From an uncultured Candidatus Rokubacteria bacterium (GTDB lineage Bacteria; Methylomirabilota; Methylomirabilia; Rokubacteriales; DASRDR01), in assembly GCA_963708025.1 (NCBI GenBank), contig CAVPSB010000034.1:128001-192000 (forward strand): a stretch of DNA of 64,000 nt. The letters run 5' to 3'. Made by a program: the position numbers and the translations under genes. Shown here one piece after another: positions 1 through 5,896 of the stretch. Numbering within the stretch: the first letter of the stretch is position 1; the number at the start of each line of letters is the position of its first letter. Below the pieces are notes generated by a model that was given only the letters and a program-made list of their open reading frames with translations, was not told the DNA's origin and ran no database searches.

Positions 1-1256
1 CCGGCGAAGCCCCCGAAGAACACGGCGCTGAACAGCGTGTAGTGGAAGTGCGCGACGACGAAGTAGGTGTTGTTGATGTAGATGTCGACCGGGGCCGACC
101 CGTTGAAGATGCCGGTGAGCCCGCCCACGATGAACATCGTGACGAAGCCGAGGGCCCAGAGCATCGGGGTGTCGAAGCGGATCGAGCCCCGCCACAGCGT
201 CGCGATCATCGCGAACATCACGAAGGCGAACGGCACCGAGATCAGGATGGTCGTGACCGAGAAGGGCATCGCCAGACGCGGGTCCATGCCACTCACGAAC
301 ATGTGGTGCGCCCACACGATGAACGACAGCGCCCCCGCCACCAGGGTGGCCCAGATGATCCACCGGTACCCGAAGATCGGCTTCCGGGAGAACACCGGCA
401 GGACCTCCAGCACGAAGCCGACGGCGGGCAGCAGCACGACGTAGACCTCGGGGTGCCCGAAGAACCAGAAGAGATGCTGCCAGAGGAGCGGGTCCCCGCC
501 GCCGGCCGGCGCGAAGAACTGCGTCCCGATCGTCCGGTCCAGGAGGAGCATCACCGCCCCGCCGATCAGGGGCCCCACCGACAGCAGGAAGATCACCGCC
601 GCCATGAGTTGATGCCACACGACCAGCGGGAGCCGGAAGAAGCCCATGCCCGGGGCTCGCAGGACGATCGCGGTCGTCACGTAGTTGACCCCGCCCATCA
701 GGAACGACGCGAACTCCAGCGCGTGGGCCAGGAGCCAGAGGTTCAGCCCCCACGTCACCCCGGTGAAGTCCGGCCGCGCCGACAGCGGCGGGTACCCGGT
801 CCAGCCCGCCGAGGCCGCCCCGCCCGGCACGAAGAAGGACACGAGCAGGAGCAGGGAGGCGACGAGGAACACCCAGACCGAGAGCATGTTCAGGCGCGGG
901 AAGACCATGTCCCGGGCGCCGATCATGAGCGGGATCAGGAAGTTTCCGAACGCCCCCAGCAGGATGGGCATCGCCACGAAGAACACCATGATGGTCCCGT
1001 GCATCGTGACGAAGACGTTGTAGGCCTCGGGCCCGACCTCGCCCAGCACCGGAACTGGCGCCTCCGGCCAGGCGAGCTGGTATCGCATCAGGAACGCGAG
1101 AAAGCTCCCCACCAGGATCCAGAACACCCCGAGGCCGAGGTACTGCATCCCGATGGTCTTGTGGTCGGTCGCGAAGACGTACCGCCCCCAGAATCCCGGC
1201 GCCGCGTGCTGGGCGACGTGCGCCACCGCCGCCGTCCCGGCCCCCGCCTCGCTCAT
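1..1256 (-). CDS. coxA: Heme-copper oxidase subunit I, A-family (3' end outside window); atypical K-channel and Mg site
   Basis: Not in the ORF track; translated by hand from ATG 1256. Motifs: ATDHKTIG, TMHGTIMVFF, FGNFLIPLMIGARDMVFPRLN, GWTGYPPLS, WQHLFWFFGHPEVY, VWAHHM, VVAHFHY. Confidence 0.95.
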   Translation of the reverse strand, partial: MSEAGAGTAAVAHVAQHAAPGFWGRYVFATDHKTIGMQYLGLGVFWILVGSFLAFLMRYQLAWPEAPVPVLGEVGPEAYNVFVTMHGTIMVFFVAMPILLGAFGNFLIPLMIGARDMVFPRLNMLSVWVFLVASLLLLVSFFVPGGAASAGWTGYPPLSARPDFTGVTWGLNLWLLAHALEFASFLMGGVNYVTTAIVLRAPGMGFFRLPLVVWHQLMAAVIFLLSVGPLIGGAVMLLLDRTIGTQFFAPAGGGDPLLWQHLFWFFGHPEVYVVLLPAVGFVLEVLPVFSRKPIFGYRWIIWATLVAGALSFIVWAHHMFVSGMDPRLAMPFSVTTILISVPFAFVMFAMIATLWRGSIRFDTPMLWALGFVTMFIVGGLTGIFNGSAPVDIYINNTYFVVAHFHYTLFSAVFFGGFA

Positions 1257-1281: not shown

Positions 1282-1959
1282 TCAGGATCCCCACTGCTCG
1301 GCCCGCCACCGGTCGAAGACCTCCGGCGTCTCGACGAAGAGGTATCCCTTCATCCCGGAGTGCCCGAACCCGCAGAGCATGGCGCAGGGAAGCTCGTACT
1401 TGCCGGTCTTCGTCGCCTCGAACCAGGCGTCGATCACGCGCCCCGGCACCACGTCCTGCTTGAGACGGAGGTTGGGCAGGAAGAAGCTGTGGATGACGTC
1501 CTTCGAGCGGAGCTCGAGCCGCACCGGCTTCCCGACCGGGACGTGGATCTCGTTGTCGAAGGTCCGGTCGTCCGTGGTGTCGAACTTCCCGTCCGGCCCC
1601 GGGTAGACGACCTCCCAGTTGAACTGCTTGCCGGTGACCCGGATCGTCAGCTCCGCCGGCGGCCGCTCCAGCTTGACCCGCGCCCAGGCCGGCGCGCCCT
1701 TGAAGTCGATCCAGAAATCGAGCACCAGCACGACCGCCACCGGGACGAGCAGCCACGCCACCTCGCCGAGCCGCTCGCCGCGCACGTACGCCGCGCGCTG
1801 GCCCGGGCGGCGCCGGTAGCGGACGAGGAACCAGCCGATGGCGCCGAAGGTGATGAAGAACCAGATGATCGTGAGGTAGTAAACCAGGCCGAAGACCGCG
1901 TCGATCTCGCCACCGTAGGTCGAGACGTTCTCGGGCAGCCACCGGAACCAGTTGAGCAT
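1282..1959 (-). CDS. coxB: Cytochrome c oxidase subunit II (CuA)
   Basis: MLNWFRWLPENVSTYG start, two TM helices, GKQFNW, DVIHSF, CAMLCGFGHSGM CuA motif. ATG overlaps the upstream TGA (TGATG). Confidence 0.93.
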   Translation of the reverse strand: MLNWFRWLPENVSTYGGEIDAVFGLVYYLTIIWFFITFGAIGWFLVRYRRRPGQRAAYVRGERLGEVAWLLVPVAVVLVLDFWIDFKGAPAWARVKLERPPAELTIRVTGKQFNWEVVYPGPDGKFDTTDDRTFDNEIHVPVGKPVRLELRSKDVIHSFFLPNLRLKQDVVPGRVIDAWFEATKTGKYELPCAMLCGFGHSGMKGYLFVETPEVFDRWRAEQWGS

Positions 1960-2390
1960 CAGGACGCCTCCCGCCGCGTCGGGGGGGTGTGAGCCGGGAC
2001 CAGGTCGTCGATGCGCACCGCCTCGAGCTCCCGGGTGACGAGCGCCTGGATCCGGAGCCAGACTGGATGGACCGGGCACGTGCCGGCCCGGGCACACCGC
2101 GGTGGCCGGGTCACGCACCGGTTGAGCGCCATCGGCCCCTCGACGGCCTCGATGACCCGCCGGAGGCTGATCGTGTGCGGGCTCGCCGCGAGCGAGACGC
2201 CACCCAGCGCGCCGCGCCGCGTGTGCACCAGACCGTCCCGCGCGAGGGCCTGGACGATCTTGGTCAGGTAGGCCCGGGGCACCTCGGTGCGCCGGCCGAG
2301 GTCGTCCGTCCTGACGGTCGTCCCCGCCGGCTGCGCCGCCAGATCGACGACGACCCGCACCGCGTAGTCGCCCTTGCGCGTGAGCTCCAT
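1959..2390 (-). CDS. Rrf2-family (IscR/NsrR-like) Fe-S transcriptional regulator
   Basis: MELTRKGDYAVR, YLTKIVQAL, RGALGGVSLA, and three Cys in C-x6-C-x5-C (RCVTRPPRCARAGTCPVH). Confidence 0.92.
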   Translation of the reverse strand: MELTRKGDYAVRVVVDLAAQPAGTTVRTDDLGRRTEVPRAYLTKIVQALARDGLVHTRRGALGGVSLAASPHTISLRRVIEAVEGPMALNRCVTRPPRCARAGTCPVHPVWLRIQALVTRELEAVRIDDLVPAHTPPTRREAS

Positions 2391-2394
2391 GGAG

Positions 2395-2420
2395 TGGACC
2401 TTGTTGATCCCGTTGGTCCA
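2395..2420. promoter_or_regulatory. Inverted repeat TGGACC-N14-GGTCCA, putative Rrf2 autoregulatory operator
   Basis: Perfect 6-bp arms ending 4 nt before the Rrf2 ATG. Confidence 0.5.
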
Positions 2421-2623
2421 GAAGGACCTACCCGAGGATCGCTCACGGGCCACGGCGCGGACAATGAGGCATCCGCATCATTTCCCTAGTCCGGGCGACC
2501 CGGTCGTCCGGCACCTCGACGAAGCGAGCCGGCGCCGTCTCGAGGAACGCCTCGGGTGGCGGCGCGCCTCGTCCACCGCTGAAAGGGTCGGAACGGCCGG
2601 CGCAGCCCCCGGGGGGGGGAGAA

Positions 2624-2656: not shown

Positions 2657-5600
2657 CTACCGGGTCTCGACCGCCGGGAGACCGCCTTCGCGCACGAGCG
2701 TGTTGAACGCGGACACGTCGGCGTCGACCAGCGCCTGGAGGCGACCGAGCTCCCGGCGGACCTGGGCCGCCAGGTGCTCGTAGACCTCGACGGCCTGCCG
2801 GGGTGGGGCGGCGTCGGCGCTCGACAGCACGCTGACCAGGGAGGCCAGGCGGAGGTTGAGGCGCGCGGGATACCGGAGCGCGTCCATCGAGTTCCGGGCG
2901 CCGGTCTGGACCAGCTCGGTCTCGATCTCGGTGAGCCGGGCCACGAGCGCCTCGGCCGCGCCGGCGATGGCGAGGAGACGCTCGGGGGCCTCGCCGGGCG
3001 CCGTGGACTCGCGGACGCGCTGGGACCACTCGCCCACCTGACGGCGGATCCGCCGGAGGCGGTTGATGCCGGCATGCGTCTCCGACAGCGTGTCGCGGAT
3101 GCGGCTCCACAGGGCGAACTGCGCGTCGAGATCGGCCTGGCTGGCCGGCACCCGGGGATCCTTGCGCACCTCGAACGACTGCGTCCACGACCGGTCGCCG
3201 ACCGTCAGACGGACCTGGTAGGTGCCGGGCGGAGCGAGCGGGCCGGTGATCGCCTTCTCGGTGGTGACGTCACCCGGCACCTTTTCCGCGCCGGGGTAGC
3301 GGAGGTCCCACACGAAGCGGTTGAGGCCCGGCCGGGCCGTGATGTAACGCTCGTCCTTCGGCGCGGCTTCGGGGGCGACCGACGTCGTCTCGGCGCCAGG
3401 CGGCCGGCTCGTTCCGCCGTCGGCTGCCGGCTCCTCCGGCCGTGTCCCGAACGTGCGGATCACGGCGCCCCCGGATTCCAGGAAGCCGAGCGACACGGGA
3501 CCGGCAGGCGCGCCGGGAAGGACGTAGTAGACGATGGCGCCGGTCGGCGGGTTCTCGCCGGCGTCGAGGAACGTCCGCAGGCGCTCGCCCTCGGGCGTCC
3601 GGTCCTCGTAGAAGGTCAGCCCGGTCCCCAGCGCCATCATGTAGTTCTTGTGGTGCTTGCCCGGCCCCCGGAAGAGGTCCACGCTCCAGTTCTGCCAGGG
3701 CCGCACGGTGGCGCGCGGCGGGAGGAGCCGGGCGGCCTCGGCCGCGCTCGCCGTCGCCTCGCGCAGCGGGGTCAGGTCGTCGAGGATCCAGAACGACCGG
3801 CCGTGGGTCGCGGCGACCAGGTCGCCGTTCTTGACGGCGAGGTCGTAGACCGGCGCCACCGGCAGGTTCCCGGGAAGCCGGTGCCAGGTCGTCCCGTCGT
3901 CCCCGGACACCACGACCCCGGTCTCCGTCCCGACGTAGAGGAGCCCGCGCCGCGCCGGGTCCTCCCGGATGACGCGGCTGATCTCGCCGGCCGGGAAGTC
4001 CCCGGCCAGGGCGCGCCAGGTGTGGCCGTAGTCGTCGGTCCGGTAGAGGTAGGCGTGGTAGTCGTCGAGCTTGTAGCGGGTGGCGGCCACGTAGGCCGTG
4101 CCGCGCGCGTGCGGCGAGACCTCGATCGTCGCGATCAGGGACCACTCGGGCAGATCGGGCGGCGTCACGTTCTGCCAGCGTCTGGCCGTCGTCCCGCGAG
4201 ACGTGGACGAGGCCGTCGTCGCTCCCTGCCCACAGGACGCCCCGCTCGTGCGGGCGACTCGGCAAAGGCGTAGACGGTGCCGTAGTGCTCGGCGCCGCTG
4301 GTGTCCTTGGTCAGCGGCCCGCCCGAGGCTTCGAGCTTGGTCGGGTCCTGCCGGGTGAGGTCCGGGCTGATCGCCTCCCAGCTCGAGCCCTCGTCGCGGG
4401 TGCGGAAGACGAGGTTGCCGGTGGCGTAGAGCGTGCCGGGGTCGTGGGGCGAGAAGACGATGGGGAAGGTCCAGGCGAAGCGGTACTTGAGGTCCCGGGC
4501 GCCCCAGCCGTAGTACACCTCCGGCCACACGGTGACGAGCCGGATCTGGCGCGTGCGGTGGTCGTAGCGCTGGAGCGCCCCACCGCCGCCGGGCGAGCTG
4601 CCGACCGCGCCGACGTAGACGACGTTCGGATCGCGCGGGTGGACCGCGATGTACCCGCTCTCCCCGGTGCCGGCCGGGTAGCAGTCGCCCCAGGTGATGC
4701 CGCCGTTCTCGGAGGCGCTTGGCACGCTCACGCTCGAGTTGTCCTGCTGGGTGCCGTAGACGCGGTAGGGGTGCTGGTCGTCGGTGGCCACGTGATAGAA
4801 CTGCGCGGTGAGCTGGTTGTAGATGGTGGACCAGCTCCCGCCCGCCGTTGAACGAGACGCAGGCGCCGCCGTCGTTCCCCTCGATCATGCGCCGGGGATC
4901 CCGGGGGTCGATCCAGAGATCGTGGTTGTCGCCGTGCGGCGTGGTGATCTCGGCGAAGGTGCGCCCGCCGTCGGTCGACTTCCACATCTTGAGATTGGTC
5001 ACGTAGACCGTGTCGGGGTCGACCGGGTCCGCGAAGACGTGGCAGTAGTACCAGGGGCGATGGATCAGGTCGCGGTTGTCGGAGACGAGCTCCCACGTTC
5101 GCCCGCCGTCGTCCGAGCGGTAGAGGCCCGCGCTCGACGCCTCGACGATGGCCCAGACGCGATCGCCCCGGGCCGGGGACACGCTGACCCCGATCTTGCC
5201 CTTGATCCCGCGCGGCAGCCCCGGATTGTCGGTGATGTCCGTCCAGGTGTCGCCCCCGTCGGTCGACTTGTAGATCCGGCTGTCCGGGCCCCCGCTGGAG
5301 AGCGTCCAGAAGTGGCGGTACACCTCCCAGGTGGCCGCGTAGAGGACGCGGGGGTTGCCCGGGTCGAGGGCGAGGTCGATCGCGCCCGCCTTGTCGCTCG
5401 TGAAGAGGACCTGCTGCCAGCTGCGGCCGCCGTCCCGGGAGCGGAAGACCCCGCGCTCCCGGTTGGGTCCGAACGCGTGGCCGAGCGCGGCGACGTACAC
5501 CAGGTCGGGGTCGCGGGGGTGGACGCGGATCTTGCCGATGTGACGGCTGTCGGCCAGCCCCACGTGCGTCCACGTCTGGCCGCCGTCGGTCGTCTTGTAG

Positions 5601-5896
5601 ACGCCGTCGCCGTAGGAGACGTCGATCCGGATGGTCGCCTCCCCCGTTCCCGCGTAGATGACGCTGGGATCCGACTCGGCCACCGCCAGCGCACCGATGG
5701 CCGCCGTTCGGAAGTAGCCGTCGGAGACGTTCTCCCAGTACGTGCCGCCGTCCGTCGTCTTCCACACCCCACCGGCCACGGCACCGAAGTAGAACACCGC
5801 CGGCTCGGTTGGATGGCCGGCGACCGCGACCACCCGCCCGCCGCGCGGGGGACCGATGCAGCGCCACCGGAGGGTCTGGAACAGGGCTGGGTCCAT
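2657..5896 (-). CDS. BNR/VPS10-like beta-propeller glycosyl hydrolase-family protein (compensating frameshifts at ~4840, ~4250, ~4180)
   Basis: WRCIGPPRGGRV start and many S/T-x-D-G-G-x-T-W repeats. The middle segment lies in ORFs 4165-4791 (YGTQQDNS) and 3270-4265 (WAGSDDGLVHVSRD). Confidence 0.85.
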   Translation of the reverse strand: MDPALFQTLRWRCIGPPRGGRVVAVAGHPTEPAVFYFGAVAGGVWKTTDGGTYWENVSDGYFRTAAIGALAVAESDPSVIYAGTGEATIRIDVSYGDGVYKTTDGGQTWTHVGLADSRHIGKIRVHPRDPDLVYVAALGHAFGPNRERGVFRSRDGGRSWQQVLFTSDKAGAIDLALDPGNPRVLYAATWEVYRHFWTLSSGGPDSRIYKSTDGGDTWTDITDNPGLPRGIKGKIGVSVSPARGDRVWAIVEASSAGLYRSDDGGRTWELVSDNRDLIHRPWYYCHVFADPVDPDTVYVTNLKMWKSTDGGRTFAEITTPHGDNHDLWIDPRDPRRMIEGNDGGACVSFNGGRELVHHLQPAHRAVLSRGHRRPAPLPRLRHPAGQLERERAKRLRERRHHLGRLLPGRHRGERVHRGPPARSERRLRRRGRQLARRRWGAPALRPPHAPDPARHRVAGGVLRLGRPGPQVPLRLDLPHRLLAPRPRHALRHRQPRLPHPRRGLELGGDQPGPHPAGPDQARSLGRAADQGHQRRRALRHRLRLCRVARTSGASCGQGATTASSTSRGTTARRWQNVTPPDLPEWSLIATIEVSPHARGTAYVAATRYKLDDYHAYLYRTDDYGHTWRALAGDFPAGEISRVIREDPARRGLLYVGTETGVVVSGDDGTTWHRLPGNLPVAPVYDLAVKNGDLVAATHGRSFWILDDLTPLREATASAAEAARLLPPRATVRPWQNWSVDLFRGPGKHHKNYMMALGTGLTFYEDRTPEGERLRTFLDAGENPPTGAIVYYVLPGAPAGPVSLGFLESGGAVIRTFGTRPEEPAADGGTSRPPGAETTSVAPEAAPKDERYITARPGLNRFVWDLRYPGAEKVPGDVTTEKAITGPLAPPGTYQVRLTVGDRSWTQSFEVRKDPRVPASQADLDAQFALWSRIRDTLSETHAGINRLRRIRRQVGEWSQRVRESTAPGEAPERLLAIAGAAEALVARLTEIETELVQTGARNSMDALRYPARLNLRLASLVSVLSSADAAPPRQAVEVYEHLAAQVRRELGRLQALVDADVSAFNTLVREGGLPAVETR

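Follow-up and report, generated by a model that had tools for sequence, protein, structure and literature searches.

The stretch of DNA analysed here (the window) comprises 64,000 nucleotides, G000:C34:128001-192000, of the 8.17-Mb, 49-contig genome (G000) of an uncultured soil bacterium, Candidatus Rokubacteria; its GC content runs from 0.68 to 0.76. The first 1256 nucleotides (1..1256, minus strand) hold coxI, which encodes subunit I of an A-family heme-copper oxidase (HCO) of the A1 type, with its HPEVY motif, as assigned from the open reading frame (ORF) listing, Pfam COX1, PDB alignments and a structural model. The ORF (3..1256) is open at the window edge and supplies residues 1-418 (418 amino acids); the whole of coxI (P0004, 571 amino acids) reaches G000:C34:127541 in the genome. 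It belongs to an operon that runs past the start of the window and reads Rrf2-coxII-coxI-coxIIIa-coxIV-coxIIIb, with genes for a small CxxC protein and a 313-residue membrane protein.

The coxI protein matches Pfam COX1 at E 9.7e-120 and 52 distinct PDB sequences at E <=1e-5 (phmmer), the top matches being mitochondrial and bacterial aa3 subunits I (E ~1e-103 to 1e-98; best 6.1e-103, a mitochondrial COX1). An AlphaFold model built on an input alignment of 30 sequences (pLDDT 86.5, pTM 0.88) has 12 long helices from residue 32 and none earlier, and Foldseek matches it to solved A-family oxidases with query-normalised TM scores of 0.83-0.87 at 40-44% identity. All six metal-binding His (86, 268, 317, 318, 403 and 405) are kept, and Arg465/466, Asn105, Asp116, Asn123, Ser126 and Asn191 are also present. 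Helix VI (HPEVYVVLLPAVGFVLE, residues 268-284; 405..455, minus strand; alignment and clade column counts) retains the CuB ligand His268, Glu270 and the cross-link Tyr272. What marks an A1 O2 reductase (the six His, the Glu and Tyr of HPEVY, the D-channel and an adjacent CuA subunit II) is all found here; the K-channel (Lys362, Thr359, Ser299, Ser365) is not, its residues being V346, F343, L283 and A349.

The numbers of the Rhodobacter sphaeroides enzyme are assigned as the query position plus 16, a constant offset that fits the ranges of the alignment to 1m56_A and the spacing of all landmark residues. In gap-free HMMER alignments to mitochondrial COX1 chains, the helix VIII segment ISVPFAFVMF (residues 339-348; 213..242, minus strand) lies under IAIPTGVKVF, and LPAVGFVLE of helix VI lies under LPGFGMISH, so that Thr359 corresponds to Phe343, Lys362 to Val346 and Ser299 to Leu283. 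A preliminary description of this DNA had reported these three in-frame substitutions, which the PDB alignments bear out, although what it labelled codons 213-242 are window nucleotides 213-242. Several changes went beyond it: Ser365 and Trp366, which follow in helix VIII, have become Ala349 and Met350; Asn395-Asn396 (69..74, minus strand) stands in place of His411-Asp412 of the Mg/Mn site (both segments again from the alignment and the clade column counts); subunit II has Met in its CxExC motif; and helix IV has acquired Glu181 and Phe185.

The helix IV changes fall in the other proton pathway. The entrance of the D-channel, FGN...GARDMVFPRLN with Asn105, Asp116 and Asn123 (888..944, minus strand), is intact, and further along it helix IV reads ALEFASF (residues 179-185; 702..722, minus strand). 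This aligns Glu181 with Ser197 of the D-channel, Phe182 with Gly198 and Phe185 with Ser201 (S197, S200 and S201 appear among the residues bounding the D-channel in the molecular dynamics study PMC10341450). Residue 181 lies mid-helix in the AlphaFold model (helix 169-198), on the same face, by helix periodicity, as Ser184, Gly188 and Asn191; Glu181 should consequently point into the upper D-channel, near Glu270.

This pattern is conserved. A word-index protein search returned at least 8000 proteins at E <=1e-50, and in each of the best 120 of these (72-100% identity) the motif IS[VI]PFA precedes hydrophobic residues; 120/120 are without the Lys, far more than chance would give. Together with 20 genome loci of 68-78% identity they make up a clade set of 140 sequences (68-100% identity), which was compared with a sister set of 28: the paralogue on C32 of the same genome, 7 cluster representatives and 20 relatives with identities of 56-60%. 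Position 346 (Lys362) is I58 L53 V24 M2 in the clade, with a few other residues and never K, and K in 28/28 of the sister set; position 343 (Thr359) is F131 I7 V1 L1 against S27 T1; position 283 (Ser299) is L102 A26 C6 M3, the rest other, against S in 28/28; and position 349 (Ser365) is A131 S7 C1 T1 against N in 28/28. The six His, E270, Y272, R465/R466 and the D-channel residues (N105, D116, N123, N191 and S126) are invariant in 140/140, which confirms for the whole clade the earlier statement that the metal ligands, HPEVY and the D-channel (FGN, RDMVFPRLN) are kept. ALEFASF is likewise found in 140/140, hence E181, F182 and F185 each without exception; the sister clade has L/V/M/F, G/A and S at these three positions. 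Ser340 is also constant (140/140; Ala in the sister clade). Among the clade-specific transmembrane changes there is no new ionisable residue besides Glu181. The Mg/Mn positions vary inside the clade (N51 S43 H37 T5 at 395; N44 D29 A27 R17 at 396). In subunit II, the Glu at the mouth of the K-channel (Glu101) is E in 8, Q in 9, H in 2 and G in 1 of 20 loci. These counts imply that the K pathway has been relaxed or filled in while the catalytic residues have stayed under strong constraint.

In a first tree (FastTree, 147 sequences, SH-like support) the core clade has support 0.993, or 0.998 once P0124 and P0125 (53-63% relatives) are included. It is placed among Lys-bearing 'IAVPSAIKTF' enzymes, with support of 0.879 for the larger group and 0.116 for the immediate sister relation. 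In a second tree, of 227 sequences, the 33 sequences with Glu181 form one clade (support 1.0), none with Lys. Isolated decay or sequencing error, considered as a source of the substitutions, was rejected, with 140/140 relatives lacking the Lys and conserving the catalytic residues. To judge from these sequences, loss of the lysine marks a discrete, conserved, multi-phylum clade and not isolated decay.

The clade extends well outside the phylum of its host. A scan of species-representative genomes for relatives gave at least 80 loci (43-57% identity among those listed), ten of which, among those listed, combine Glu181 and Phe185 with Met or Leu in place of the Lys. Their records are from Gemmatimonadales, Gemmatimonadaceae, Longimicrobiales, two Myxococcota, Polyangiales, Bradymonadia, Bdellovibrionaceae, Puniceicoccaceae bacterium K14 (L116) and one Klebsiella-titled bin; some carriers, K14 for example, are likely to be culturable. 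The Glu181 clade is known from Methylomirabilota, Gemmatimonadota, Myxococcota, Bdellovibrionota and Verrucomicrobiota. The Klebsiella label is probably wrong: locus L115 (CAMASI010000044.1), titled a Klebsiella pneumoniae metagenome-assembled genome, carries a Glu181, lysine-less operon typical of Gemmatimonadota and Myxococcota. Two further members come under the source names 'candidate division NC10 bacterium' and 'Candidatus Methylomirabilia bacterium'.

Within the phylum, a match at >=68% identity exists in at least 33 of 201 sampled genomes, G000 among them (full-length in 31, partial in 2); the lysine-less state was checked directly in 20 of them and in G000, and G152, G029, G101 and G058 enter the tally as non-holders only. 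In the same sample none of the other 16 genomes of the host's family has a match of >=68% identity. The source genome itself has five HCO subunit I genes: the lysine-less copy on C34, a 55% identical copy with Lys on C32, a fused I+III copy with Lys on C15, a copy with Lys in two frames on C13 and a B-type copy on C16. There the lysine-less enzyme is an accessory oxidase, beside three Lys-bearing A-type copies and one B-type copy. (The C13 copy, G000:C13:367662-369202 or L004, reads IAVPTGIKIF; its two matching pieces lie in different frames and join near residue 330, the mark of either a frameshifted pseudogene or an error of assembly.) G007, G038 and G064 also carry lysine-type copies. In G008 (complete, a single contig) and G003, the lysine-less enzyme is the sole PF00115 match above 180 bits, and, it being the only A-type oxidase there, the cytochrome c-linked O2 respiration of some Methylomirabilota would depend on it. 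HCO-like genes with frames of ~810-870 amino acids, a qNOR-like length, occur as tandem pairs in three small genomes of the same class (G008:C1:2091817-2096459, G003:C18:13458-18174 and G007:C19:11873-16298); with the lysine-less oxidase these make up the main HCO complement of G008, G003 and G007.

Lysine-less A-family oxidases as such are already known from print, and the preliminary suggestion of an uncharacterised HCO subfamily was in this respect overstated. A-family COX1 with a hydrophobic residue at the Lys position has been described by Degli Esposti et al. (10.1101/2020.03.01.968255; PMC8239418): acidophilic Fe(II) oxidisers have Ile or a similar residue there in their COX1 (10.1101/2020.03.01.968255), and the group includes the aa3 oxidase of the Acidithiobacillus rus operon. 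In A. ferrooxidans this is a working terminal oxidase of Fe(II) respiration that has been reconstituted in vitro, according to PMC2754497. The sections of PMC8239418 on the subject count seven independent K-channel losses on the archaeal tree, refer to a supplementary table of about twenty bacterial COX1 subclades, and call 'K^C-channel' residues common to family A and C oxidases, citing Degli Esposti 2020. A 2026 preprint reports that Ferrigenium has a COX that is K-less, and considers the significance of this unclear.

The window enzyme has in common with the lysine-less COX1 of Degli Esposti et al. a hydrophobic residue at the Lys position (V346 here), a conserved D-channel and a reading as an enzyme without a functional K-channel. 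In contrast with those proteins, which are of A2 type and have the entry Glu of COX2 (P. denitrificans E78) replaced, it is A1 and keeps the entry Glu; its clade relatives, unlike the window copy, have Q, H or G there in 12/20. The two extra N-terminal helices of the basal iron-oxidiser clade (described in a passage of PMC8239418) have no counterpart in the model of the window enzyme, which moreover groups in trees with the Lys-bearing 'IAVPSAIKTF' enzymes and not with other lysine-less groups. NC10 and Methylomirabilis are not mentioned in the main text of 10.1101/2020.03.01.968255. A literature search found no lysine-less oxidase in NC10 or Rokubacteria and no Glu at the Ser197 position, although the supplements of Degli Esposti et al. 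may list the clade. What seems to be new, and apparently undescribed, is an A1-type lysine-less clade with Glu at the Ser197 position and a II-I-III-IV-III' operon, spread over at least five phyla.

Canonical A1 aa3 oxidases (R. sphaeroides 1M56/2GSM, P. denitrificans 1AR1/1QLE, bovine 1OCC) have the same fold, six His, HPEVY, Arg pair, D-channel Asn/Asp/Asn/Asn/Ser, CuA subunit II with its Trp entry, and subunits III and IV. Unlike them, the window enzyme is without Ser299, Thr359, Lys362 and Ser365, has Glu at Ser197 and Phe at Ser201, and is without the Mg/Mn ligands in this member; its operon adds a second cox3-like gene and a small CxxC membrane protein. Two cox3-like genes also occur in an accessory A-type oxidase operon of B. 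huanghuaihaiense (L157), presumably of the type named coxMNOP for the alternative oxidase of Bradyrhizobium, but that enzyme keeps Thr and Lys, has Phe at 181 and follows the order II-I-III-III-IV instead of II-I-III-IV-III'.

Further lysine-less A-type lineages appeared when a search of 50%-identity clusters (20,684 proteins at E <=0.001) was followed through its best 150 representatives. One of them, archaeal (Desulfurococcales, Hydrothermarchaeota and Euryarchaeota), carries Arg-Gly where the Mg site would be and has the same ISxPF motif, but was rejected as the home of the window enzyme, being a separate clade (support 1.0) without Glu181. An ISIPSxxI group, with loci in Verrucomicrobiota, Planctomycetota and Acidobacteriota, was rejected likewise; it has Ser343, Ile346 and no Glu181. 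Oxidases of ~840 amino acids fused to subunit III have Gln or His at the Lys position. As in the Glu181 clade, the Lys is lost and an acidic helix IV residue lies within one position of Glu181; they differ in forming a separate lineage, in the polar residue at the Lys position, in the replacement of Asn121 and in Asn207 -> Glu. In P0156-P0270 (e.g. P0159, P0165, P0177), Asn121 has become Ile/Val/Met, Glu is found at 182 and Asn207 has become Glu; in these fused oxidases both channels appear, from their sequences, to have been rebuilt.

The helix IV carboxylate was counted across 227 aligned sequences as any acidic residue at positions 179-186. It is found in 0/131 sequences with Lys, in 35/78 with an apolar residue at the Lys position and in 16/18 with Q/H. 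The carriers fall in at least three lineages: the Glu181 clade, the Gln/His group with P0243 (Glu182), and one archaeal representative (Asp181). For Glu181 itself the numbers are 33 with Glu and no Lys, 0 with both, 131 with Lys and no Glu, and 63 with neither. Since related sequences do not count as independent and similarity to the query decided which ones were sampled, a fair statement would be that carboxylate and loss of the K-channel coincided two to three times independently, with no counter-example among the Lys-bearing sequences of the sample.

According to textbooks and mutagenesis, an A-type oxidase cannot do without Lys362 in the reductive half of its cycle. We consider it somewhat probable that coxI encodes the catalytic subunit of a CuA-dependent A1 cytochrome c:O2 oxidoreductase that has abandoned the K-channel and remodelled the D-channel, so that protons are supplied by the D-channel only. 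The parts of this reading are not equally secure. That this is a functional lysine-less A-type enzyme is very likely. That it reduces O2 is, on the evidence of its residues, likely: the assignment as a cytochrome c:O2 oxidoreductase follows from retention of the Tyr, the CuB site, the Glu286 equivalent, the D-channel, CuA, the Trp entry, subunits III and IV and assembly-type neighbours. An enzyme working through the D-channel only, one of the possibilities raised in the preliminary description, is the natural reading since that channel is intact. That Glu181 compensates for the lost Lys is put forward tentatively.

In such an enzyme the K proton channel would have been given up, its polar residues other than the active-site Tyr having turned apolar and the entry Glu of subunit II being no longer conserved. 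The D-channel would have been remodelled around a buried Glu181 on the side of helix IV that lines the channel, a single turn of the helix above Ser184 and close to Glu270. Protons of both kinds, substrate and pumped, would all enter by way of Asp116, Asn105/123/191 and Ser126/184 and pass on to Glu181 and Glu270. Glu181, as a second carboxylate, might then supply the protons of the reductive phase, which is the task of Lys362 in textbook enzymes.

A number of points weigh against this reading. Members of the clade are known from sequence alone. The Methylomirabilis oxyfera aa3 oxidase, which would bear on the clade if it belongs there, is reported (work of Wu et al. in 2011) to be transcribed and to have not been detected as active. 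The window's subunit I has lost the Mg/Mn site, and scores 620.5 bits against the NCBIfam equivalog TIGR02891 (CtaD_CoxA), under the cut-off of 670.75. The channel placement of Glu181 is a modelled one, from helix periodicity and a published list of D-channel residues. The link of Glu181 with Lys loss inside the clade is a single evolutionary event, and the wider count comes from 227 sequences picked by similarity to the query, in which relatives are not independent and a one-residue shift of the alignment is possible. The K362M mutation abolishes oxidase turnover of the R. sphaeroides enzyme and leaves its peroxidase activity, a phase that uses the D-channel only (from the K362M passage of PMC7601700, with which the earlier statement that Lys loss blocks the oxidase and spares the peroxidase agrees); a D-only oxidase would for this reason need compensation, for which Glu181 is here the conjectured source.

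A more general proposal is possible but rather doubtful: a buried helix IV carboxylate atop the D-channel would be a recurrent replacement for the K-channel, and the Glu181/Glu270 pair would deliver both chemical and pumped protons, making these fully pumping D-only A1 oxidases. (In a bolder branch of the same proposal the family would consist of natural proton-pumping cytochrome c peroxidases.) If recurrent replacement holds, the 'essential' Lys pathway is dispensable given one compensating residue, and S197E is predicted to be able to rescue K362M in R. sphaeroides.

Among explanations that compete with D-only supply, the one that survives best, though an unlikely one, is that a second proton input route persists through unrecognised residues or subunits and that Glu181 has another role. 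Candidates are Ser340 and Thr336 of helix VIII, Glu284, the second cox3-like subunit, the small CxxC protein, or bound lipid or water. The invariant Ser340 lies on the K-channel face between Thr336 and Phe343, and the operon does have extra conserved subunits, which would suit such a route; but Ser340 is situated above the blocked stretch, in which 343, 346, 349 and 283 are all apolar, the entry Glu of subunit II is not conserved, and Glu181 is the only new ionisable transmembrane residue found.

An improbable alternative is that the main activity of these enzymes is that of a proton-pumping cytochrome c peroxidase, the H2O2 cycle skipping the reductive phase that depends on the K-channel. We know of no natural HCO peroxidase. 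The peroxidase activity spared by K362M and its exclusive use of the D-channel would fit, and the operon is coupled to an Fe-S (iron-sulphur)-type Rrf2 regulator, of a kind that often senses redox or oxidative stress. The regulator is absent, however, from the family outside one order, the features of the sequence do not separate peroxide from O2 use, and the enzyme is the sole A-type oxidase in two genomes; nothing in the analysis supports the peroxide chemistry that the preliminary description had offered as one option.

The other chemistry offered there, reduction of nitric oxide (NO), either by an NO reductase (NOR) or by an NO-tolerant detoxifying enzyme, is to be considered very improbable. 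Its attractions are a host phylum that includes nitrite- and NO-metabolising organisms, the tandem HCO-like genes of ~800 amino acids in G008, G003 and G007, an adjacent Rrf2 that is weakly NsrR-like (49.7 bits against a cut-off of 182), and the slow reduction of NO by A-family oxidases that is mentioned in PMC11214002. But the Tyr cofactor, the three CuB His and the Glu286 equivalent are invariant and the full pumping D-channel is retained, whereas the HCO-type NOR families (cNOR, qNOR, eNOR, sNOR, gNOR, nNOR and bNOR) are without the Tyr and have a changed set of ligands at the active site (FeB with Glu, or variants) where PMC11214002 describes them; the cross-linking Tyr and canonical CuB His place the window enzyme outside these families, and NO reduction is disfavoured on that account. 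A decaying or non-catalytic paralogue, for which one might cite the four other HCO subunit I genes of the genome and the Mg/Mn site lost in the window member, is scarcely credible when no catalytic residue has been lost in any of the 140 relatives (68-100% identity), five phyla have conserved the operon and some genomes have no other A-type enzyme.

With D-only oxygen reduction as the preferred reading, the family is a natural and strongly conserved A1 lineage without the whole K pathway, with all else kept and with one extra invariant Glu in the D-channel. It gives a defined and testable answer to the question of how an aa3-type enzyme can run on one channel, and its main value lies in the Glu181 lead and in the clean natural experiment that it presents. 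For annotation the lesson is that the label 'cytochrome c oxidase subunit I' conceals mechanistically distinct subfamilies.

Subunit II (coxII, 1282..1959, minus strand; 225 amino acids from the ATG at 1959; assigned by Pfam COX2, alignment to P. denitrificans chains and clade motifs) keeps the CuA ligands, the Trp electron-entry site and the K-channel entry Glu ('rlgEvaw' aligned with 'tpiEviw'); the Glu of CxExC is Met. Across 20/20 coxII loci the CuA motif H...CxxxCxxxHxxM is present, and the QxxW electron-entry motif is kept. The order coxII-coxI-coxIIIa-coxIV is found in 19/20 Methylomirabilota loci, and coxII-coxI-coxIIIa-(coxIV)-coxIIIb in 10/10 loci from other phyla. The low-GC Bdellovibrionaceae locus (L117) has a gene for a dihaem cytochrome c upstream, and a 76-residue CxxC membrane protein, a thioredoxin-fold (SCO-like) protein and a DUF420 protein downstream.

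A small protein with a signal-like helix, an ACAVC/ACSVC motif and a second helix is encoded 3' of coxIIIb (L006 9589-9885, minus strand; L117 9300-9530, plus strand; also L037 and L038), and may be a conserved candidate for a copper-handling factor or an extra oxidase subunit. At the end of the operon, outside the window, lies the gene for the 313-residue, internally duplicated membrane protein (L006 8602-9543, minus strand = G000:C34:124602-125543), for which no Pfam or NCBIfam family was matched. In three other lysine-less operons (L038, L039 and L040) it immediately precedes coxII, and a Gemmatimonadota record (L103) has a homologue 3' of a Lys-bearing oxidase operon; the protein may be an accessory factor of oxidases that has gone unrecognised.

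The Rrf2-family regulator (1959..2453, minus strand; Pfam Rrf2 5.9e-34) has the motif C-x6-C-x5-C-x2-H, and its TGA stop overlaps the coxII ATG (TGATG); its start, judged from the reading frame, is likely to be Met22 at nucleotide 2390. In NCBIfam it reaches only the superfamily model (the NsrR model giving the score cited above). An Rrf2 gene is immediately 5' in 9/20 loci, with a divergent copy downstream in a tenth, and the motif is common to 8 Rrf2 loci. Rrf2 is not present in the loci of genus g54 nor in the ten loci of other phyla, and is consequently lineage-specific and outside the core of the family. In the window, the lysine-less oxidase is probably controlled by this co-transcribed Fe-S-type regulator.

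As to transcription, sequencing runs were scanned for words of the locus; none contained half of the sampled words, and most contigs matched only conserved motifs of other organisms. One certain RNA library (X20) gave a single 177-nucleotide contig with 2 differences on coxII (window 1520-1696), and X19, whose RNA label is a guess, gave four 151-nucleotide contigs with 2-6 differences on the start of coxI, the end of coxII and Rrf2. With DNA carry-over possible for both, these contigs are at most a hint of transcription.

Beyond the operon, window 2657-5896 (minus strand) holds a 1079-residue ORF with Sortilin/Vps10-BNR repeats, the middle third of which is Arg/Pro-rich nonsense. An overlapping ORF in another frame (4165-4791, minus strand) reads like a beta-propeller, and Pfam matched the N-terminal part only of the 1079-residue ORF; this gene probably carries two compensating frameshifts or assembly indels.

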